DNA of 64,000 nucleotides from a bacterium. Lineage in GTDB: Bacteria; Sysuimicrobiota; Sysuimicrobiia; Sysuimicrobiales; Humicultoraceae. The notes under the pieces are model-generated. The model had not been told where the DNA came from. It did no database searches and worked only from the letters and a program-made list of their open reading frames with translations. A program made the translations under genes and the position numbers. Location of the stretch: assembly GCA_041497675.1 (NCBI GenBank), contig JBGQGY010000001.1, positions 13,727 to 77,726 of the forward strand. The letters run 5' to 3'. Below are positions 38,370 to 48,690 of this stretch, piece after piece (position 1 is the stretch's first letter; every line of letters starts with the position of its first letter).

Positions 38370-39446
38370 ATGGCGAAGATCGCGATCGTCGGCTGTGGTG
38401 GAATCGGGGGTCTGGCCGGATTCTACATGGCCCAGGCGGGCGAGTCTGTCGTCTTTGTCGACCAGAACGCCGACCATGTCCGGGCGATCCGCGACCGCGG
38501 CCTCTCCGTGAACGGCGTGTACGGGCCGATGTCCATTGGTCCCCAGCGCTCGTACACGCCAAGTGAGATTCCCGAACCGCTCGACGGGCTGATCTTTCTC
38601 GCATGCAAATCGCAGCACACGGCCGCGGCCGTCCCGCCGTTACTACGGTATCTGACCCCACAGACGTGCATTATCTCGCTTCAGAACGGCATGAACGAAG
38701 ACACGATTGCCGACGTCGTCGGGCGTGAGCGCACGATGGGCGCCCTGCCCGACTACGGCGGCGCGTACCTCAACCCGGGCGTGCTCGAAGCGGTCCACGA
38801 GGGAACGGTGTACGTGGGTGAGCTCGACGGTCAAGTCACCGACCGCGCGCGCGAGGCCGCCCGCCTCCTAGGGATCGGCCGGAACAAATGCGAGCTGCTC
38901 AACGACATCGTGGGACGTCTGTGGACGAAGCAGGTCTACAATTCACAGGTGGTCACGACGGCCCTCATCGATGGGACGGTCGTCCAGGTGTTGGGAAACA
39001 AGAAAGTTCAACGTGTGTCGATCGCCCTGGTGCGGGAGGCGATCCGTGTGTCAGATGCCGCCGGTGTGCGTCTGCACCCAGACCGCTGGTTCACGCCGGA
39101 CCTGTACCGTGCGGATACCCCCGAGGCGACACAGCAGCTCCTGGCCGCGTTTGACCGGCTCGTCGAGCACCTAGGGGGCCACCAGGTCGGCGAAGGGCCG
39201 GGCGGCTACACGTACGTGAAGAAAGCCAGCGGGATTCATTGGGATATCGTCTACCGCAGGCGCAAGAGTGAGGCGGCCCACCTGACGGTGGTGTGTGTGG
39301 CCGACCGGTATGGCGTGAAAGTGCCGTTGAACACTCGTCTGATCGAGTTGATCGAAGAGATCGAGGACGGCAAGCGCACGCTCGGGTGGCACAACGTCGA
39401 CGAGCTGACGGCCTACGCGGAGACTCTGGGCAAAGCGCTCCGCTAA
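38370..39446 (+). CDS. panE: 2-dehydropantoate 2-reductase (ketopantoate reductase, ApbA/PanE family)
   Basis: N-terminal Rossmann KIAIVGCGGIGG and an ApbA C-terminal domain are present. Confidence 0.8.
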   Translation: MAKIAIVGCGGIGGLAGFYMAQAGESVVFVDQNADHVRAIRDRGLSVNGVYGPMSIGPQRSYTPSEIPEPLDGLIFLACKSQHTAAAVPPLLRYLTPQTCIISLQNGMNEDTIADVVGRERTMGALPDYGGAYLNPGVLEAVHEGTVYVGELDGQVTDRAREAARLLGIGRNKCELLNDIVGRLWTKQVYNSQVVTTALIDGTVVQVLGNKKVQRVSIALVREAIRVSDAAGVRLHPDRWFTPDLYRADTPEATQQLLAAFDRLVEHLGGHQVGEGPGGYTYVKKASGIHWDIVYRRRKSEAAHLTVVCVADRYGVKVPLNTRLIELIEEIEDGKRTLGWHNVDELTAYAETLGKALR

Positions 39447-40687
39447 GGACTCTTGTAGACGACGCCGTCCTTCATCACCAGCCGGACGCGCTGCGGGTCG
39501 GCCACGACCGAGATATCGGCTAGCGGGTCGCCATCGATCAAGATCAGGTCGGCCAGGCGCCCCGGTTCTAGGGTGCCGAGGACATCGCCCATCCCAAGCA
39601 CCTGAGCGCCCATCTTCGTCGACGCGACAATTGACTGCATGGGCGTCATGCCCGCCTGCACCATGTAAACGAGTTCGCGGGTGTTTTGGGCATGCCCCAG
39701 CGCGCCCGCATCGGTGCCCATGGCGATCTTCACGCCGAGGTCGAGCGCCCGTTTGAAGTTGCGACGCTGCACGTCGAAGACCGGGGGCAGCTTCGCCGCC
39801 GTGTACGCGGGCAGCGAGTGCGGGTCGCGGTCCAGCCGCTCCTTCATGCGATGGGTGACGCTGAGGGTGGGCACGAGCCAGATGCCCAGGCGCACCATCC
39901 GCTCCAAGTCTTCCTCGTCGGCCACGGCCGCGTGCTCAATGGAATCCACGCGCGCCTCCAGGCAGATCTTCAACCCCTCACCGCCGTGGGCGTGGACCAG
40001 CACGGGTTTGCCGGCGGCATGCGCCTCATCCACCATGGCCCGCAGCTCTTCGAGGGTGAACTGTCTGGTCGTCGGGCCGCCCCGTGGAGAGCCGACGCCC
40101 CCGGTCGTCGCAATCTTGATACAGTCCGCCCCGGCGCGGATGACCTCACGAACCTTGCGCCGGCACGCGTCGGCGCCGTCGGCCGTGCCGTCGGGGATGC
40201 CGGGCAGCCGCGGAAAGTCCGAGGAGAGCCCGCAGGGCTGCATCAGGTCGCCGTGACCGCCGGTCTGCGTGATGATCACCAGGCTGATGACCAGCCGCGG
40301 GCCGGGGGTGACGCCCTGTTCGACGGCCATCTTGACCCCGAGGTCGACGCCCGCCGCGTCGCGGAACGCCGTGACGCCGGTCATGAGCGTTTCGGTCGCC
40401 CAGCGTCCGACCTGGAGAACCGCCAGACTCGGGGCGGTGTTCATACGCTGTTTGATATCCAATCCCAGATGGGCCAGGTGATCGTGGCAGTCGATGATGC
40501 CCGGCATCGCGGTGAGCGACGGGTAATCATAGACCTTGAGCCGATCACCCGCTGCCTGGAGCGACGCCGAGGGTCTAACGTCGCTGATCGTGTTGCCTTC
40601 GATCGTCAGGGCCATATTGCGCGCCGGCGGCACCCCGGTGCCGTCGATCAGTTGTCCGACCTTGATCACCATGGCGGTGCCCGTCAT
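39443..40687 (-). CDS. Amidohydrolase family protein (imidazolonepropionase / Xaa-Pro dipeptidase-like)
   Basis: PGIIDCHDHL metal-binding motif, with HAHG and DAG motifs downstream. Confidence 0.8.
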   Translation of the reverse strand: MTGTAMVIKVGQLIDGTGVPPARNMALTIEGNTISDVRPSASLQAAGDRLKVYDYPSLTAMPGIIDCHDHLAHLGLDIKQRMNTAPSLAVLQVGRWATETLMTGVTAFRDAAGVDLGVKMAVEQGVTPGPRLVISLVIITQTGGHGDLMQPCGLSSDFPRLPGIPDGTADGADACRRKVREVIRAGADCIKIATTGGVGSPRGGPTTRQFTLEELRAMVDEAHAAGKPVLVHAHGGEGLKICLEARVDSIEHAAVADEEDLERMVRLGIWLVPTLSVTHRMKERLDRDPHSLPAYTAAKLPPVFDVQRRNFKRALDLGVKIAMGTDAGALGHAQNTRELVYMVQAGMTPMQSIVASTKMGAQVLGMGDVLGTLEPGRLADLILIDGDPLADISVVADPQRVRLVMKDGVVYKSP

Positions 40688-40807
40688 CTATGCGCCCTCC
40701 CGTCATGCGTCCGCGATTCGATGCTGCCGGCGCATGTATTCCCCGCAAGACTTCGTGGGCCTCTTGGAGAAATCACCGTTGCGAATACTCTCAGCGGGAG
40801 GTCTGCG

Positions 40808-41602
40808 ATGCGCAAGTGGAATCTGGCCCTGATGAACTCTGGTGAGATTGGTGCGATCGTCAAAGAGCACTCGCTGCTGCTGGTCCCGGTTGGCTGCGTC
40901 GAGCAGCACGGACCCGTCGGGTTCACCGGCGCCGACACGTATCTTGCAGAATACGTGTGCCACCGGGCGGCTGAGAGACTCGACGATGTGTACGTGACGC
41001 CGCCGTTGTGGTTTGGGTACACGCCCTACACCAGTTTCGCGGGGACGGTGAGCCTGCGTCTGGCGACCTTGGAGGCCGTCGTCCAGGACGTCGTGGAAGG
41101 GTATCTGGCGCACGGGTTCCGTCACATCGTCATTGTCAACAACCATGGACCAAACGAGGCGGCGATCGAGCCCGTGGCGGCGAGGGTGCGGCGGCAGCAC
41201 GGGGTGGTGCTCGGCGTGCTCTATCCGTGGCGACTGGCTAATCACGTGTCGGCGGATCTATACCCGGATACCCGCGCCGTCTTCGGCCACGGTGGCGAGC
41301 CGACGATTTCTGTCATGATGGCGCTCTCACCCGGAACGATCGACCCGTCGCCTCCCGGGGCGCGCGGCTACGTGAGTCCGGAAGGCCCGTTCCAGGTCAC
41401 GTCGTACCGAGCGGCCCGGTTCGGCGGTTTTGAGATCGGGTTGTTCAACGAAGCGTCACACGTGCTTCCCAGCGGGGCCAGCGGGGACTGGACCGTGGCG
41501 TCCGAGGAGCGCGGCCGCGAGATTCTCCGACGCATGGTAGACTACGCGTTGCAGTTCCTGCCCGCGTTTTTGCGTCTGAGCCGCGAGCGCCGCCGCCCCT
41601 AG
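40808..41602 (+). CDS. Creatininase (creatinine amidohydrolase) family protein
   Basis: LLLVPVGCVEQHGP and VNNHGPN motifs are present. ATG with SD GGGAGG. The long upstream ORF extension is rejected. Confidence 0.8.
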   Translation: MRKWNLALMNSGEIGAIVKEHSLLLVPVGCVEQHGPVGFTGADTYLAEYVCHRAAERLDDVYVTPPLWFGYTPYTSFAGTVSLRLATLEAVVQDVVEGYLAHGFRHIVIVNNHGPNEAAIEPVAARVRRQHGVVLGVLYPWRLANHVSADLYPDTRAVFGHGGEPTISVMMALSPGTIDPSPPGARGYVSPEGPFQVTSYRAARFGGFEIGLFNEASHVLPSGASGDWTVASEERGREILRRMVDYALQFLPAFLRLSRERRRP

Positions 41603-42999
41603 GCCGCGGGTTCCTCCGGAGGGAACTTCAGGGCCGCGATCTCGATGCCGGCCTCGGTGGGATCGACCGACTGCACGATGTGTCTGGTGTGATGTTCCTC
41701 GAGGTCCAGATCGGACACCACCTCGGGCGGGGTGGCCTGCGGGTCGATCACGCTGACGAGCGGGCGAGCGGGGCTGCTGCGGCCCGGCCGGCGGACCACG
41801 GCGAGGGTGCCTCCGTCCAGACGGACCAGAGTACCCACCGGGTAGACGCCCATCTCCTGCAAGAAGATCCTCGCCAGCGTGGGGTCATAGAGCGTTCCCG
41901 CGCCCGCCAGGATGAGCCGCATGGCCTCTTCGGGGGTGTGGGGCCGGCGGTAGACCCGCCGAGACGTTGTCGCGGCGTCGAATACGTCTGCGATCTGTAC
42001 GAGGCGCGCGAGCAGGTGCGGACGGGGTTTGGTGCTGATGCGCGGGTATCCCGACAGGTCGTAGTTGGCGTGGTGCTCGAACGCGACGACCATCGTCAGC
42101 TTTGACGGGCCCGCGAGCCCGCGCAGCATCTCCGCCCCAAGGATCGGGTGCTGCTGGATGATGGTCCGCTCGTCGTCGGTGAGTTTGCCGACCTTGTTGA
42201 GGATCTCGTGGGGGATGCGCGTCTTGCCGATGTCATGCATCAATGCCGCGACGCCGAGCGTGGCCATCTGGTCGCGGCTGAACGCCAACCGCGGCGCCAT
42301 GAACAGCGCCAGGATGCCCACGTTGACCGAGTGATGCGCCGTGTCTGCGTCATAGTTCTTGATGGTGGCGGCGCGCATGAGGCTCAGCGGGTCTTTGGTG
42401 AGGATGTCGACGAGTGAATCCACGACAACGCGGGCTTTGTGCAAGTTGAGGGCGCCGTTGCCCGCCGCCTGCGAGTAGAGTTCGTCGATGACGCGCAGCC
42501 CGGCGCGGTAGGCGTCGGTCGGCTCAACCTTGAGCGCGGCCCGCGCCGTGACCGGGTTTGCCTCGGTAGCCCCCACGGAGAGGTAGCGGATCCCGCGGTG
42601 GTCGAGGTACGCGGCGGCCCCGCCCATCTGTTGCACCTCAGCGACCGGCATGCAGAGCATGTCGACGAAATGGCGCAACTCGTGCAACTCCACGCCGCGG
42701 CGGATTTCGAGCGACAGAATGGAGCGTCGCCTGAACTCACCGAGGAGTGAGGCCAGCTGGAGACTTTCCTCGAGTAATATGGTGTTGTCCACAAAAAATG
42801 TCTCTTCATGGATAAAGATTCCAATTAATGGGCGGTCGGCCAGCAACGCCGTGACCAACTGATACGCGTCCGCGACGAAGCGGTCGATGACCCGATGGGT
42901 GCGGCCGTAGAGCGCCGCGGTTCGGCGGATCCGCGAGAGCGCGCGCAAGACTTCAACCGGTCGCTCGCGCACAATGGGGTTGAACGCGGGGTCGGTCAC
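41599..42999 (-). CDS. HD-GYP domain c-di-GMP phosphodiesterase with N-terminal uncharacterised domain
   Basis: HD motif (HDIGK) and HHANYDLSGYP (HD-GYP signature) are present. Confidence 0.85.
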   Translation of the reverse strand: MTDPAFNPIVRERPVEVLRALSRIRRTAALYGRTHRVIDRFVADAYQLVTALLADRPLIGIFIHEETFFVDNTILLEESLQLASLLGEFRRRSILSLEIRRGVELHELRHFVDMLCMPVAEVQQMGGAAAYLDHRGIRYLSVGATEANPVTARAALKVEPTDAYRAGLRVIDELYSQAAGNGALNLHKARVVVDSLVDILTKDPLSLMRAATIKNYDADTAHHSVNVGILALFMAPRLAFSRDQMATLGVAALMHDIGKTRIPHEILNKVGKLTDDERTIIQQHPILGAEMLRGLAGPSKLTMVVAFEHHANYDLSGYPRISTKPRPHLLARLVQIADVFDAATTSRRVYRRPHTPEEAMRLILAGAGTLYDPTLARIFLQEMGVYPVGTLVRLDGGTLAVVRRPGRSSPARPLVSVIDPQATPPEVVSDLDLEEHHTRHIVQSVDPTEAGIEIAALKFPPEEPAA

Positions 43000-45005
43000 G
43001 TGGGTCGCGCCTGCATGCTGGCAGCCGGAGGCATGCGGTCGGGCGCCCCGTCGAAGGCCTGGATCGTGGCGACGGCCTCCCCGGCCAGGCGCCGGAGGGT
43101 GCGGGGCCGTCGCCCGAAGGCGAGCCGGTGTTGGGAGAATCGAACCAGCGCGGGGATCGCGTCTTTGGCGCGCGACCGCGCCAAAGACGCGATAATCTCC
43201 TGCTTGAGGGCAAAGGTCAACTGCATCGGGTCGAGCCGCGCCAGCAAGTGGAGCAACTTCGGCAGGGAGAGCAGCACCGCGGTGTCGCTCATCGAGAGGA
43301 CGACCTTGAGACGGATCCGCCCATCGACGTCGTCGAGCAGCTTGGCCAGTAGCGCGTTGGCCTCCTGCCCGCCGATGCTGGCAAGGGCGGCTACGGCCTC
43401 GCTGCGAACACGGTGGTCGCGATGCGAGGCGAGCCGCGCGATGTGACCCATCCCCCGAGGATCGCCCAGACGACCCAAGATGTATGCGACGTTACGCGCC
43501 AGATACCAACGCCCATCGGTCGCGAAGAATCCCACGTCGTCGATGCGATCGCGGGCCAGGGTCACGATGATGTCGCAGAGCATTCGCCGAGTCCCGGCAC
43601 GCAACTCCTCACCAAGGATCATCATCAGCGGCGCAACGATGCGACTGCCCAGCAGCGACAGACACAGTCGAAGCTCTTCCTCCACCGGGGTGCCGCGGCC
43701 GTTCCACAGCGTCTCCACCATCGTATTGAGGAGGCGGGTTTTCGCCACCCCATCCGTGAGATCCGCCACCGCGCGCTCGTGAGCCGGCGTCTTGGCGGCG
43801 CCGTCCCGAAGGCCTTGCAGCACGACCCGCAGCAGCGAGAAATCTTCCTGCCCGACGAGCCACGGGAGGTACTCATCGACTGATCGGATCGTGCCCACGA
43901 TCTCTGACTCATCCGCCTGGTTGCGAAACATGTCGACGAGCGTGCCGATGACCTCGCGGGCGACGGAGGCCTCGTCCGTGCCCTCCATCTCGATGCGGAT
44001 GCTTTCTGGCGGTCCGTCATCGGCCGGGCGCCCCGCCGGGAGGGGCAGGGAGGTGGACCCCGCGACCGCCGTCTGCGGCTGCTGCGCGTGCAGGATTTGC
44101 ATCTCCGGGTCCAAAGCCAGCAGGTCGCCCGGACCCTCGCCCCCGCTGCTTTCGAGCGAGTTACGGGGCACAATCCCGACCAGTCTCTGCTCGGACAGAT
44201 GGTCCAGTAGCACCCGGGCCATCGCATCGTTGCTCCCCGGCGCGGTCAGCGTGCGCTGCAGCGGCATCCGAACCGGGTCCTCGAGCAGGAGGATGGCCGC
44301 GGCGAGGTGGCTGTAGAACTGCTCGCGGTCTTCGCTGGACTGGGTCGCGATGATGCGATCGAGGTTCTTGACGACGTCGTACAGCGTCTGACTCCAGTCG
44401 AGGTGCTGGTCGTCGGCCGCGTTCCCCAGCATCGTCCGCAATTGCTCGAACAGTCCGCCAATCGCACCGGGGCCGGACCTCAGGATGTCGACGACAAACT
44501 GATGATTTTCGGCGGTCAGTTCCTGGCCGTCGCCCATCAGGTCCCACAACGCGCCCCACGACTCGTCCTGCGGCGCGGCGCCCACGGCGAGAACGATCTC
44601 CATGACCCTGATCGTCTGCACACCTGCCCGGCGCATGCCTCCGGCGATACCCCCGGACCCTTCGAGACTCACCCGGTCTTGTCTGACGATGGTCAAGAAC
44701 GTCGTGATCTCCTGGGCGGTCACACCGGGGAGGACCGCGAAGCCGATGACCTTTCTGGCGTACAGGTGGAGGGCCAGGCTGGCCGACGTGGCATCCTTGA
44801 ACGTCGCCTCGTTGACCTGGAACGACCGGCGGGATACCCGAACGGTGAACGGTCCGTTTGTCTCGATGTAGGTATGCAGCCCGGCGAGGACCTCGCCAAT
44901 CGCCCGGTCCGTGACCGGGCTCGGGGGCGGATAGAGGGTGTAGGTCTTGAGAGCGACGGCAAAACGTCGCAGGATGGCGCTCGCCGCGGATGCCTTTGAG
45001 TCCAT
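42996..45005 (-). CDS. HEAT/PBS-lyase repeat-containing protein (large N-terminal uncharacterised region)
   Basis: C-terminal HEAT-like repeats (RVRSEAVAALASIGGQEANALLAKLLDD..., GRLGDPRGMGHIARL). The start overlaps the HD-GYP gene. Confidence 0.6.
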   Translation of the reverse strand: MDSKASAASAILRRFAVALKTYTLYPPPSPVTDRAIGEVLAGLHTYIETNGPFTVRVSRRSFQVNEATFKDATSASLALHLYARKVIGFAVLPGVTAQEITTFLTIVRQDRVSLEGSGGIAGGMRRAGVQTIRVMEIVLAVGAAPQDESWGALWDLMGDGQELTAENHQFVVDILRSGPGAIGGLFEQLRTMLGNAADDQHLDWSQTLYDVVKNLDRIIATQSSEDREQFYSHLAAAILLLEDPVRMPLQRTLTAPGSNDAMARVLLDHLSEQRLVGIVPRNSLESSGGEGPGDLLALDPEMQILHAQQPQTAVAGSTSLPLPAGRPADDGPPESIRIEMEGTDEASVAREVIGTLVDMFRNQADESEIVGTIRSVDEYLPWLVGQEDFSLLRVVLQGLRDGAAKTPAHERAVADLTDGVAKTRLLNTMVETLWNGRGTPVEEELRLCLSLLGSRIVAPLMMILGEELRAGTRRMLCDIIVTLARDRIDDVGFFATDGRWYLARNVAYILGRLGDPRGMGHIARLASHRDHRVRSEAVAALASIGGQEANALLAKLLDDVDGRIRLKVVLSMSDTAVLLSLPKLLHLLARLDPMQLTFALKQEIIASLARSRAKDAIPALVRFSQHRLAFGRRPRTLRRLAGEAVATIQAFDGAPDRMPPAASMQARPT

Positions 45006-45009
45006 GGAG

Positions 45010-47616
45010 TTAGCCCGCGGTCACCACGCGGTCGCGTCCTTCTGCCTTCGCCCGGTAGAGGGCGGCGTCCGCGGCCTTGAGCACCTTTTCGCCGGTCGCC
45101 TCGTGGTCGGGGAAGACGGCGATGCCCAGCGAGAGGGTCACCGCTCCCAGGGACGTCCCTTGGTGCTCGACGGACAGACGCGCGGCGGCCTGACGGATCC
45201 CCTCGGCCCGCGCCTGGGCGATATGGAGCGGCGCGCCCGGTAGGATCAGGGCGAACTCCTCGCCGCCGTACCGGCAGGCGATGTCCTCAGCGCGGATACC
45301 CTTTTGGAGCACGGTGGCGAGTGCCCGCAAGAGCGCGTCGCCCGCCGCGTGGCCGAAGGAGTCGTTGAATCGCTTGAAGTGGTCGAGATCCAGCATGATC
45401 ACAGAAACGGGAATCCCCGCGCGGGACGCCCGCTGCAGCTCGCGTATCAGCGATTCCTCCATGTACCGCCGGTTGAACAGACCGGTGAGCGGGTCGCGGA
45501 TCGACTGGTGGCGCAGCGTCTCTCGCAGCCGCAGGTTCGTAATGGCCAGTCCGATCTGTTCGGCGACCGCGCCGGCAAGCTGCTCGACGGATTCGCTCCA
45601 GATGTCTGGGTGATGAAGATCGATCCCCCGGATCGCGAGGTGCAACACTCCAAGGGAATCGCCCTGTGAGGCCATCGGGATGCAGATGGTCGCATCCGGT
45701 GGGTGGGGCCCCAGGTGCGGGCAGGGAAGACCAGCGGTCGTCGACGTCCACGTGTGCCCCCGGCCCCGTCGGACGGCCCAGCAGTCCTCAGGGACGAACA
45801 CGTGCGGGGTCGGGGCCCCGTCGCCCCACGCCGTGACGGCCTCGAGCAGGTCGTTGGCCGGCGTCAGGATGTACAGCGCACCCGACAGCTTGGGAAACAG
45901 CTGGGGGAGGAAGAGCGCGACCACCTTCGAGACCTCGTCTTGGTGCTGGCAGCCCAGCAGATATTCGGTCATCTCGCCAAGCAACGAAATCTCGCGGTTC
46001 CGCTGCTGGAGCTGACCGACCCACGCCGTGAGCTTTTCGTTGGCCTCACGGACGGCCTTCTCGGCCTGCTTACGCTCGGTCAGGTCGGTGATGATGGCGA
46101 TGGAGCCGTGGTACTCGCCGTCCTTGATCCGTGGCACGGCCGTCACCAAGACGTCGATCACTTTGCCCCCGGCACCCTTGAACCGGACGTCATACGTGTC
46201 GACGGCGCCCTCCCGTCGCCGGCCGCGCGCCGCCTTGATGACCGCGTGATCGTCTTCATAAACGAAGTCCATCGTGTTCTTGTACGTCAGCCGCTCCACG
46301 GGGTAGCCGAGCATGTCGGCGAGGGCAGGGTTGACGTACTCATAGCGCCCCTGCGCATCGGTGACCGCGAGCCCCTGCGCGATCGTGTTCATGACCTGCA
46401 GTGCGAAATCGCGCTGCGCGCGCAGCTCGCCATCGATGCGCTTGCGATCGGTGATGTCCTCGGCGATGCCCACGAATCCTGTGACCCTTGCATCTTTGTC
46501 GCGGATCGCGCCGGCCTGGGCCTGCACCCAGTGGATCTCGCCGTCTGGGCGTTGGAAGCGGAACTCCAGCGAGAATTCGCGCCCTTCGCGCGTACACGTA
46601 TCCCACCATGTGGAGACCAGCACGCGGTCGTCGGCGTGGATCGCCAGAGTCCAGCCGTCGCCAATGTTCTCGTCCAGACGGAGCCCGGTGATTTCTTGCC
46701 ACTTGGCGTTGACGTACTCGCACCGCCCCGCCGGGTCCGTGTGGAAGATGCCCATCGGCGACGCGGCTGCCAGCGAGCGGAACCGTTCCTCACTCTGCCG
46801 CAGCGCCTCTTCAGCGAGGTGACGCGTTGAGATGTCCCGCGCGTGGGCCTGGAAGCCGGCGACGCGATCGCCGTCGAGTATCAAATGGACGTTTTGGCCC
46901 AGCCACGTCCGCCCGCCGCTCTTGGTCATCACCGGCAGTTCGAGGTATGAGGTCGGTGTTCGTTCGCTGATCTGCACGCGATAGAAGGCCCGCGCTTCCT
47001 TTCGGGCTTCGGGGGCGACCAGGTCGAGATAGTGACGGCCGACGCATTCCTCCGGAGAGAACCCCAGAACGCGCGTCACCACCGCATTCACAAACGTAAA
47101 GCGTCCTCGGTTGTCCGTCTGATAGATGATATCGGTGGCCTGTTCGATGAGGGTCTTGTAGCGGCTCTGGCTCTCCCGCAGCGCCTCCGCGGCTAGTCGC
47201 CGCTCCGTGATGTCGATCCCGAGTGAAATCGTGCCTGTGGCGCTGCCCCCGTCGCGCATCTCCCTGTTGTGCCAGGAAATGAACCGCTCCTCGCCCGAGC
47301 TGGTCAGGATGGGGCCTTCGAGTGAAGCCGGGATCCCGGCGGCGGCCCCGCGTGCGAACTGTTCCCACGCGTCGGGATACCGTGACCGCGGCACAAGGAC
47401 TTCGAACCAGTCGCGACCCACCAGGTCGGCTGGGGCGTACCCGGTGATGCGCTCGGCTTCGTCGTTGGTCCAGACGATCCGGCCGGCCGTGTCGAGTTGG
47501 ATGACGATGACGTGGGCGTGCTGAATCAGATCCTGGGCTAGGGCCTGGACCTGCAGAGCCGGCTGTTGGCGTGGAAGGTTGGCAACCTCGCCCATCCGTG
47601 CCGTCCTTTTTGGCAT
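45010..47616 (-). CDS. Sensor diguanylate cyclase: four PAS domains, GAF domain and GGDEF domain
   Basis: Four PAS cores (e.g. TDNRGRFTFVN, TDPAGRCEYVN, TDAQGRYEYVN). The GGDEF active site is RYGGEEF, with an RxxD-type I-site context. Confidence 0.9.
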   Translation of the reverse strand: MPKRTARMGEVANLPRQQPALQVQALAQDLIQHAHVIVIQLDTAGRIVWTNDEAERITGYAPADLVGRDWFEVLVPRSRYPDAWEQFARGAAAGIPASLEGPILTSSGEERFISWHNREMRDGGSATGTISLGIDITERRLAAEALRESQSRYKTLIEQATDIIYQTDNRGRFTFVNAVVTRVLGFSPEECVGRHYLDLVAPEARKEARAFYRVQISERTPTSYLELPVMTKSGGRTWLGQNVHLILDGDRVAGFQAHARDISTRHLAEEALRQSEERFRSLAAASPMGIFHTDPAGRCEYVNAKWQEITGLRLDENIGDGWTLAIHADDRVLVSTWWDTCTREGREFSLEFRFQRPDGEIHWVQAQAGAIRDKDARVTGFVGIAEDITDRKRIDGELRAQRDFALQVMNTIAQGLAVTDAQGRYEYVNPALADMLGYPVERLTYKNTMDFVYEDDHAVIKAARGRRREGAVDTYDVRFKGAGGKVIDVLVTAVPRIKDGEYHGSIAIITDLTERKQAEKAVREANEKLTAWVGQLQQRNREISLLGEMTEYLLGCQHQDEVSKVVALFLPQLFPKLSGALYILTPANDLLEAVTAWGDGAPTPHVFVPEDCWAVRRGRGHTWTSTTAGLPCPHLGPHPPDATICIPMASQGDSLGVLHLAIRGIDLHHPDIWSESVEQLAGAVAEQIGLAITNLRLRETLRHQSIRDPLTGLFNRRYMEESLIRELQRASRAGIPVSVIMLDLDHFKRFNDSFGHAAGDALLRALATVLQKGIRAEDIACRYGGEEFALILPGAPLHIAQARAEGIRQAAARLSVEHQGTSLGAVTLSLGIAVFPDHEATGEKVLKAADAALYRAKAEGRDRVVTAG

Positions 47617-47727
47617 CCTGTAAAAAAGGTGTCGGGAGGTTATTCCCGTTTTGATGGAAGTTCAGGCCGCGCACAGGACTCAGCGGCACATCGGAGAACA
47701 CCCGTACCCGTGCCGCGCGGATCGCTC

Positions 47728-48690
47728 ATGGCAGCAGGGCTGGTGGCCGCCGCGACGCTGCTGGCCGTCAGCCTGGCGGCTCCATCCCCCCACGCCGCGG
47801 GTCAGAGCCCCCGTGGCATCTATCTGACCGATCCGGGCAACGGCCGGATCGTCCGGCTCGCCGATCTCACCGGTGCGGGCTGGACGACGCTCAGTATGCA
47901 GTCTGCGCCGCCCGGGACCGGCCGGCAGTTCGCGTTCCAGTCGGGTATTGTGGTCGACGGCTCGGGCCGGATTTACTTCTCCGACGTTACCAACTCACGC
48001 ATCGTACGGGTCGACAACATCACGGGCGCGGGCTGGGTCACGTTTGGAAGCCGAGGCACCGGGCGCAACCAGTTCGACCTGCCGGCGGGCATTTCCGTCG
48101 ATGCCACCGGCCGAATCTACATCGCGGACGCCAGCAACTCGCGGATCGTGCGTATCAATGATATGACCGGCGCCGGGTGGACGGCGCTGGGAAGCCGGGG
48201 CGCGGGACCCTCACAGTTCAACTTCCCGCAAGGCATCGCCGTGGACGGCGCCGGCCGGATCTACGTCGCGGATGCCATCAACGACCGCATCGTTCGTATC
48301 AATGATATGACCGGCGCCGGCTGGACGACCTTTGGCACGCTGGGAAGCGGCGCGCGGCAGCTCGAATTTCCCGCGTCCGTGGCGGTCGATGCATCAGGCC
48401 GTGTGTACGCCACCGACTCGAGCAACGACCGCGTCGTGCGGATCAATGACATGACCGGCGCGGGCTGGGCGACCTTCGGCAAGATCGGAACCGGGCCGGG
48501 CGAGTTCTCGTTTCCAACGGGTCTGGCGTTAGACGCCCAGGGTCGGTTGTACGTGACCGACGAGGTTCATCGCCTCGTGCGGTTCAACGACATGACCGGC
48601 GCCGGTTGGACGGCGCTCGGCAGTATGGGGAGCGGCGTCAATCAGTTTTCCTTCCCATCAGGGGTGTGTGCGGATCCGTCCGGCCGGTGA
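47728..48690 (+). CDS. Secreted NHL-repeat six-bladed beta-propeller protein
   Basis: Signal peptide, then six roughly 49-aa repeats (FxFPxGIAVD..GRIYVAD..N.RIVRINDMTGAGWT). Confidence 0.75.
   Translation: MAAGLVAAATLLAVSLAAPSPHAAGQSPRGIYLTDPGNGRIVRLADLTGAGWTTLSMQSAPPGTGRQFAFQSGIVVDGSGRIYFSDVTNSRIVRVDNITGAGWVTFGSRGTGRNQFDLPAGISVDATGRIYIADASNSRIVRINDMTGAGWTALGSRGAGPSQFNFPQGIAVDGAGRIYVADAINDRIVRINDMTGAGWTTFGTLGSGARQLEFPASVAVDASGRVYATDSSNDRVVRINDMTGAGWATFGKIGTGPGEFSFPTGLALDAQGRLYVTDEVHRLVRFNDMTGAGWTALGSMGSGVNQFSFPSGVCADPSGR
47830..48660 (+). repeat. Six tandem ~147-bp coding repeats (NHL blades); repeats 3 and 4 near-identical at DNA level
   Basis: cgcatcgt(g/t)cgtatcaatgatatgaccggcgccgg(g/c)tggacg recurs at about 48138 and 48286. 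Periodicity is about 147 bp. Confidence 0.7.

Follow-up and report, generated by a model that had tools for sequence, protein, structure and literature searches.

A widespread two-gene cassette of a HEAT-repeat protein and a predicted HD-GYP phosphodiesterase with a common N-terminal domain

Gene organisation of the locus

The three genes considered here lie on the minus strand of a 64,000-nucleotide (nt) stretch of contig JBGQGY010000001.1 (the window, G+C about 65-67%, whose own positions are used throughout) and run consecutively in the same direction. The most upstream is an open reading frame (ORF) of 868 amino acids (aa) for a sensor diguanylate cyclase (45010..47616), followed by a 669-aa ORF for a HEAT-repeat protein (42996..45005) and a 466-aa ORF for a predicted HD-GYP phosphodiesterase (41599..42999), the last two being the non-catalytic and the catalytic member of a conserved pair. 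As judged from sequence comparison this pair is an uncharacterised and widespread cassette of an HD-GYP protein and a HEAT partner, present in multiple phyla and with a new N-terminal domain common to both proteins.

The cyclase gene ends with a TAA stop codon (45010-45012) and a spacer of 4 nt read from the sequence (45006..45009, minus strand) separates it from the ATG of the HEAT-partner gene, which begins at 45005. The TGA stop of the HEAT-partner gene overlaps the GTG start of the HD-GYP gene in the tetranucleotide GTGA (42996..42999, minus strand), an arrangement that suggests translational coupling of the two genes. A preliminary description of this stretch had reported the three minus-strand ORFs, the 4-nt spacing and the stop/start overlap, all of which we recovered at exactly these positions. 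One HEAT and HD-GYP cassette and one GGDEF gene are all that the window holds of either kind.

A homologous N-terminal domain in the HEAT and HD-GYP proteins

Neither the first 215 residues of the HD-GYP protein nor the first 490 of the HEAT partner contain anything recognised by Pfam or NCBIfam. When the N-termini of the two window proteins were compared with each other by BLASTP only a weak match was obtained (18% identity, E 0.048), and profile comparison with hhalign matched them at 96.3% (E 1.6e-9) and, using deeper alignments, at 99.5% (E 1.2e-22) over 126 columns. Plain hidden Markov models (HMMs) of each N-terminal domain reciprocally matched the other protein with E values of 1e-8 to 1e-24 in nearly all pairs, the weakest being 7e-5. 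The domain spans aa 15-143 of the HD-GYP protein (42571..42957, minus strand) and aa 1-137 of the HEAT partner (44595..45005, minus strand).

Structure prediction with AlphaFold2 (AF2) gives a compact alpha/beta domain in the N-terminal region of the HD-GYP protein with a mean predicted local distance difference test score (pLDDT) of 86.6, a predicted TM-score of 0.77 and the order of helices and strands H-H-E-E-E-H-H-E-H-H-H-E. The corresponding domain of the HEAT partner is modelled as two long helices followed by b-b-b-a-b-a-a-a-b, which is essentially the same order. Eight positions are kept in both paralogues (R13/R19, K20/R26, L24/L30, Y25/Y31, P30/P36, L77/L85, R84/R92 and G119/G127, numbered as HEAT/HD-GYP), giving a common signature R...[KR]xxxLYxxxxP with a later Arg and Gly. 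In a tree of the N-terminal domains the paralogues form separate clades with congruent internal branching, which indicates an old duplication followed by co-divergence. Profiles and structure models thus show a predicted alpha/beta domain of about 130 aa that is homologous in the HEAT and HD-GYP proteins and derives from an ancient duplication.

No Pfam or NCBIfam model covers this domain, no solved homologue was detected, and it is not among the HD-GYP-associated domains in a 2021 census (bioRxiv 10.1101/2021.11.05.467447). The N-terminal domain of the HD-GYP protein had previously been called uncharacterised, which our searches bear out, and its homology to the N-terminus of the HEAT protein had been missed. 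In the light of this homology the HEAT protein is more likely to be a paralogous partner subunit than a generic effector of cyclic dimeric GMP (c-di-GMP). A profile of the domain also matches the BTB/POZ domain of BCL6 marginally (E 0.03), with the predicted core b-b-a-a-b-a-a-a in register; structure searches do not confirm this match.

Conservation of the HEAT and HD-GYP gene pair

In all of the contexts collected from HEAT homologues, at loci L001 (57% identical), L006 (53%), L009 (36%) and L002-L005 (31%) and on the P0012 contig (52%), the HEAT gene is followed directly by an HD-GYP gene. The HD-GYP protein has many full-length relatives, those with a named source being mostly from metagenome-assembled genomes (MAGs) of Armatimonadota, and when contexts were collected from this side a HEAT_2 protein of 660-750 aa was again found directly upstream. 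The pair is present in Armatimonadota MAGs (L010, L011 and L014, the last found by a genome-contig scan), in a Desulfobacterales MAG (L015), in a metagenome assembly (L016) and, as two tandem cassettes, in a Bacteroidales MAG (L013:3743-10439). About a dozen loci reached from either protein carry the pair, not counting the metagenome scan described below, and stop/start overlaps of 1-7 nt between the two genes occur at most loci with called genes.

As a control we scanned metagenomes with a generic HD-GYP pattern and scored all ORFs of the resulting 80 loci with HMMs for five regions, namely the HD-GYP N-terminal region, the N-terminal, middle and C-terminal regions of the HEAT partner, and the catalytic domain. 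The N-terminal domain was carried by 21 HD-GYP ORFs in 19 loci. Two of these ORFs lie at contig ends and were left out of the count, and all 19 that could be assessed were directly preceded on their own strand by a HEAT-partner ORF, whose end lay no more than a few tens of bases from the HD-GYP start (19/19). No partner match was found within 4 kb at any of the 61 control loci whose HD-GYP protein lacks the N-terminal domain (0/61). The association with the HEAT protein is specific to the HD-GYP subfamily with the N-terminal domain and is essentially obligatory, so that the link between these two proteins suggested in the preliminary description is well founded.

Tandem double cassettes (HEAT, HD-GYP, HEAT, HD-GYP) were found at L013 and on the metagenome contigs L030, L032 and L033, which indicates that the pair duplicates as a unit. 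Our analysis shows that what is conserved in several bacterial phyla is a cassette of two genes, the first for a HEAT-repeat protein and the second for an HD-GYP protein. Defined as adjacent same-strand genes that both carry the shared N-terminal domain, the cassette is present in the window.

Some further features of individual loci were seen. Duplication of the pair as a unit resembles that of cognate two-component pairs. At L011 (L011:1-9041, an Armatimonadota MAG) the cassette lies between the secE-nusG-rplK-rplA-rplJ cluster and rpmG-tuf, which are highly expressed housekeeping genes, and at L016 a protein with Response_reg and HEAT_2 domains (L016:4227-5444, minus strand) is encoded on the strand opposite to the cassette about 160 nt downstream of it.

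The predicted HD-GYP phosphodiesterase

Pfam recognises an HD_5/HD domain at aa 218-375 of the HD-GYP protein (E 7.7e-27), and the protein is organised as the shared N-terminal domain, linker helices in the AF2 model (aa 160-214, 42358..42522), the catalytic domain with intact metal-binding and GYP residues (aa 215-385, 41845..42357) and a C-terminal extension (aa 386-466, 41602..41844), all on the minus strand. Its closest sequence matches in the PDB are PmGH (4mcw, E 6.5e-36) and, in second place, V-cGAP3 (5z7c, E 3.8e-29), with PA4781 (4r8z) also matched.

In an alignment of the window protein with 99 homologues the residues H223, H255, D256, K259, H284, H309, H310, G317, Y318 and P319 are conserved in 100/100 sequences and position 338 is D in 95/100 and E in 5/100. 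The full set of HD metal ligands (H...HD...H...HH...D) is present in the window protein, as are the GYP motif and the substrate-binding Lys. The GYP region reads EHHANYDLSGYP and departs from the HHExxDGxGYP consensus in having HHA for HHE and L for the first G. Residue D219 aligns with E185 of PmGH, a ligand of the third metal. Since every metal-binding and GYP residue is kept we predict hydrolytic activity for the protein, with c-di-GMP as the most probable substrate.

The C-terminal extension of about 80 residues, to which Pfam assigns nothing, is conserved within the family and carries a motif GVYPVGTLVRLDGGxLAVV...RP.V.V that is kept across five aligned partners.

The N-terminal domain was also considered as a candidate DUF3391 domain (PF11871), an assignment that we rejected. 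DUF3391 consists of four strands followed by two helices (two long helices in the family definition), whereas the present domain has two long helices followed by a beta/alpha core. The last 44 positions of the DUF3391 model (92-135) match residues 142-185 of the relative P0134 with 24.8 bits, under the cut-off of 27.8, in what is the linker helix; this weak likeness was seen in 2/34 relatives, both of them distant.

The HEAT-repeat partner

In the HEAT partner Pfam and NCBIfam recognise HEAT_2 only (aa 496-571, E 1.5e-12). Structure prediction, which the preliminary description had proposed for this protein, gives an AF2 model with a mean pLDDT of 77.5 overall and of about 85-90 in residues 1-137. 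After the shared N-terminal domain come a family-specific helical middle region modelled at moderate confidence (aa 149-277, 44175..44561), a predicted disordered linker of variable length with pLDDT below 50 and gappy alignment columns (aa 278-342, 43980..44174), and a C-terminal alpha-solenoid of the HEAT/ARM type with pLDDT about 90 (aa 345-653, 43047..43973), all on the minus strand. The modelled solenoid comprises about 310 residues at high confidence and extends over about twice the length of the Pfam HEAT_2 match. Foldseek matched it to designed armadillo proteins, the A subunit of PP2A and importins (E 3e-6 to 3e-4) and sequence searches of the PDB matched it to AlphaRep and HEAT chains, so that the Pfam domain, the model and the structure matches all place it among HEAT/ARM alpha-solenoid repeats.

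No enzymatic domain was recognised in the HEAT partner by Pfam, NCBIfam or AF2 with Foldseek. Pfam and NCBIfam likewise detected none of the known c-di-GMP-binding domains (PilZ, MshEN, degenerate GGDEF or EAL). The middle region has no Pfam match, and when it was compared with the HD-GYP protein as a possible degenerate HD-GYP domain or c-di-GMP receptor hhalign returned a probability below 1%. Because this region lacks similarity to the HD domain the HEAT partner does not appear to be a degenerate phosphodiesterase. The family does have conserved Arg-rich stretches (RRMLCD, DxRxRLK and a C-terminal RR...R...LRRLA).

An alternative raised beforehand, that the HEAT protein is a phycobilisome (PBS) lyase, is excluded by its scores, which are far under the family cut-offs for PBS lyase/NblB (27.7 against 300 bits for NF045915 and 23.2 against 330 bits for NF058502) and involve about 80 matching residues. 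The likeness to NblB and CpcE/PBS lyases is that of PBS-lyase-type HEAT repeats at aa 495-573; they differ in that the host is not a cyanobacterium, the named homologues are mostly from Armatimonadota MAGs and the genomic context is unrelated.

The upstream diguanylate cyclase

Searches of Pfam and NCBIfam divide the cyclase into four PAS stretches (about aa 30-519, nt 46060-47529), a weakly matched GAF domain (aa 569-694, nt 45535-45912) and a GGDEF domain (aa 706-863, nt 45028-45501; PF00990, E 3e-50) that also matches TIGR00254 of NCBIfam (E 3.2e-56), all on the minus strand. The active-site motif is RYGGEEF and an I-site RAED lies five residues before it (RAED-IACRY-GGEEF), so that the sequence has both the GG(D/E)EF motif and the RxxD I-site of GGDEF diguanylate cyclases. 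The true start may be Met8 (ATG at 47595) instead of 47616, because the orthologue at L018, which is 85% identical, begins at the equivalent of this residue.

The cyclase is found directly upstream of the cassette only in the window, at L008 (HEAT protein 95% identical) and at L018-L020 (HEAT protein 83% identical, three samples). It is not at the upstream position in any examined cassette with a HEAT identity of 57% or less, nor in other phyla. The upstream neighbours there are a Peptidase_M24 gene at L001, a divergent esterase gene at L002-L005, divergent Fer4/NrfD genes at L006 and on the P0012 contig, and elsewhere a CN_hydrolase gene; L009-L016 and L021-L050 also have non-cyclase genes upstream. 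GGDEF genes lie at most 4 kb from other cassettes at four loci (L011, L023, L028 and L050) with varying position and orientation, and in the metagenome loci such genes were equally seen near unrelated HD-GYP genes.

The preliminary description had seen in the three genes a self-contained c-di-GMP module of synthesis enzyme, scaffold and degradation enzyme. As a conserved unit this triad is ruled out by the gene context outside the shallow clade, the cyclase being upstream only at HEAT identities of at least 83%. Co-conservation across genomes, on which that module had been made to depend, fails for the cyclase beyond close relatives and holds for the HEAT and HD-GYP pair. The context points to the cyclase being a recent, lineage-specific addition upstream that lies outside the conserved cassette.

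At L008 the cyclase is present as two ORFs (463 and 383 aa, L008:5382-7953) and ApbA likewise (221 and 150 aa, L008:13504-14581); both genes are intact in the window and the splits are probably frameshift errors of the assembly. At L028 a 663-aa ORF directly downstream of the cassette (L028:5851-7839) matches both the HD-GYP catalytic HMM and GGDEF, an apparent fusion.

Discussion

Far less is understood of HD-GYP phosphodiesterases than of EAL enzymes, and to our knowledge dedicated protein partners of HD-GYP enzymes have scarcely been described. In our assessment the locus is best explained by a two-gene cassette in which the HEAT partner, itself non-catalytic, would bind the phosphodiesterase via the shared domain and serve it as a scaffold or regulatory subunit, an explanation that we hold with about as much confidence as doubt. 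The two proteins would be made in fixed proportion from the overlapping genes and would form a hetero-oligomer in which the paralogous N-terminal domains hold them together, with the C-terminal solenoid of the HEAT partner serving on its disordered tether as a docking surface. The HEAT partner might then gate the phosphodiesterase or place it at a particular target or cell site, with the result that c-di-GMP would be removed locally. In the shallow lineage of the window the probable transcription unit has gained a PAS4-GAF-GGDEF cyclase with an I-site, 4 nt ahead of the HEAT gene, so that in this lineage only the synthesis and the breakdown of c-di-GMP would be co-expressed, a transcriptional coupling that would be a local elaboration. 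The idea of the preliminary description holds for the tie between the HEAT and HD-GYP proteins and fails for the three-gene module as a conserved unit, and the HEAT protein moves from effector to probable paralogous partner.

A stronger version, which we regard as possible with rather more doubt than confidence, is that the cassette encodes an obligate heteromeric phosphodiesterase holoenzyme assembled via an undescribed and perhaps BTB-like domain, in which the solenoid would pick the c-di-GMP target or site, making it a widespread device for local signalling with the logic of the PP2A scaffold; or else that the domain common to both proteins might be a module of a new kind for sensing nucleotides.

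Several observations weigh against the reading of the HEAT partner as a subunit of the phosphodiesterase. It is just as conceivable that the shared domain senses a common ligand as that it forms an interface, and a few loci have gaps of 15-51 nt between the two genes with no overlap. The position aligned with E185 of PmGH varies in the family (D 50, E 21, Y 14 and N 9 of 100). HD-GYP proteins include 3'3'-cyclic GMP-AMP (cGAMP) phosphodiesterases, among them V-cGAP3 with its place as second-best match in the PDB, and also pGpG-specific enzymes. Nearly all of the cassette sequences come from uncultured organisms.

The first of these points leads to the foremost alternative, an explanation that we consider unlikely and yet deserving of attention, in which the shared domain senses one small ligand, which might be a metabolite, a metal or a nucleotide (c-di-GMP or pGpG, for example), and the two proteins respond in parallel with no complex between them, one changing the level of the messenger and the other changing a protein interaction mediated by its HEAT repeats. 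The usual view of N-terminal domains in HD-GYP proteins is that they serve as sensors or inputs (Galperin and Chou, bioRxiv 10.1101/2021.11.05.467447), the domain described here is compact, alpha/beta and modelled with high confidence, and the polar residues kept in both paralogues (R, K/R, Y, R) are compatible with a pocket for an anionic ligand. Strict adjacency, the suggested translational coupling and duplication as a unit are however typical of partners that interact physically, and a ligand of this kind is also compatible with the subunit reading in that it could regulate the heteromer. We think it improbable that, as originally proposed, c-di-GMP is made by the cyclase, bound by the HEAT protein in the role of an effector or adaptor, and degraded by the HD-GYP protein. 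Such a division of labour would fit the co-directional genes with their 4-nt gap and 4-nt overlap, the recurrence of this arrangement in several samples of relatives at 83-95% identity and the intact GGEEF and I-site of the cyclase, and the Arg-rich stretches of the HEAT family could in principle bind a dinucleotide; against it stand the restriction of the upstream cyclase to the shallow clade, the scattered GGDEF genes near other cassettes, equally seen beside unrelated HD-GYP genes, and the failure to detect PilZ, MshEN or degenerate GGDEF/EAL domains in the HEAT protein.

We also give little credence to the view that the cassette acts on another nucleotide (3'3'-cGAMP, pGpG or another cyclic oligonucleotide) and that its adjacency to the cyclase is incidental. 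The rank of the cGAMP-specific V-cGAP3 among solved relatives is in keeping with it, as is the fact that most cassettes have no adjoining c-di-GMP gene, but the closest of the solved relatives is PmGH, a c-di-GMP phosphodiesterase, and the invariant K259 corresponds to Lys235 of 4MCW, which binds c-di-GMP. In addition the only lineage with a third gene in the operon has a diguanylate cyclase there, and the flanking genes are of housekeeping type and do not resemble the defence context of a cyclic oligonucleotide-based antiphage signalling system (CBASS).

The nearest parallel to the subunit reading that we found is RcbAB of Vibrio vulnificus, a bicistronic system whose products have a common N-terminal TPR domain and interact through it, the non-catalytic partner RcbA de-repressing and anchoring the diguanylate cyclase RcbB (PMC12282931). 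Both systems are two-gene operons with matching N-terminal domains, one catalytic and one non-catalytic product, and an alpha-solenoid repeat. They differ in that RcbB is a GGDEF cyclase whereas the enzyme here is a predicted HD-GYP phosphodiesterase, in that the common domain there is a TPR array whereas here it is a compact alpha/beta domain with the HEAT solenoid in the C-terminus of the partner only, and in that the interaction is documented there and inferred for the present pair. Pfam gave no TPR family above threshold in either window protein and no sequence relationship to RcbAB was found; the resemblance is one of logic and not of family membership.

Among HD-GYP enzymes, RpfG (with a REC domain), PmGH (GAF-like domain, PDB 4MCW) and Bd1817/PA4108 (DUF3391, PDB 3TM8) resemble the present protein in their catalytic domain with full metal ligands and GYP and in the layout of input domain, linker helix and HD-GYP domain, but these families have not been described with a dedicated neighbouring partner bearing a paralogous input domain. 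The scaffold subunit of PP2A (A/PR65) is similar in being a HEAT-type alpha-solenoid tied to a phosphoesterase (Foldseek E about 1.5e-5). This is a generic resemblance of repeat folds (TM-scores 0.2-0.3) between systems with unrelated enzymes in different kingdoms, and in PP2A no domain of the scaffold is paralogous to the catalytic subunit. No description of an HD-GYP enzyme paired with a HEAT partner was found in our literature searches, in agreement with the earlier judgement that this is not a characterised system.

If the partner is indeed a scaffold or regulatory subunit the cassette would be a concrete case of local c-di-GMP wiring in poorly studied phyla such as Armatimonadota, and the set of domains serving c-di-GMP signalling would gain a new one for input or interaction. 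Our results also correct the tempting view of a conserved three-gene operon that makes, binds and breaks c-di-GMP.

Family size and neighbouring genes

The family of HEAT partners is large. Its non-repeat part (aa 1-485) was searched exhaustively with HMMER against 1.84 billion cluster representatives, giving 1,925 matches at a threshold of E <= 1e-3, of which 392 are left at E <= 1e-10 and 48 at E <= 1e-30. We take the 392 clusters (50% identity, E <= 1e-10) as a lower bound. Most of the best 150 matches are of 600-780 aa and aligned over the whole profile, and among ten shorter matches that were checked (430-615 aa) eight have HEAT_2 after the N-terminal domain and two have no Pfam match. 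In their sources members carry no more specific name than "hypothetical protein" or "HEAT repeat domain-containing protein", and these named sources are MAGs of Armatimonadota and Nitrospirota. A word-indexed protein search with the distant alignment A3 gave no further members, its results being swamped by generic HEAT proteins, and the genome-contig scan with patterns from alignment A1, which were narrow, gave a single locus.

A scan of the operon region for promoters and terminators gave no signal above shuffled expectation. Downstream, a creatininase gene on the plus strand (40808-41602) converges on the HD-GYP gene with stops that overlap by 4 nt, and upstream a gene on the plus strand for an NHL-repeat beta-propeller with a hydrophobic N-terminal stretch (47566-48690) diverges from the cyclase gene. 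Being bounded by these convergent and divergent genes the three minus-strand genes probably form one transcription unit. A 638-aa ORF on the plus strand (39686-41602) is an artefact in which the antisense of an amidohydrolase gene (39443-40687, minus strand) is fused to the real creatininase gene. The NHL-repeat gene is also present at L008, where it is apparently fragmented.

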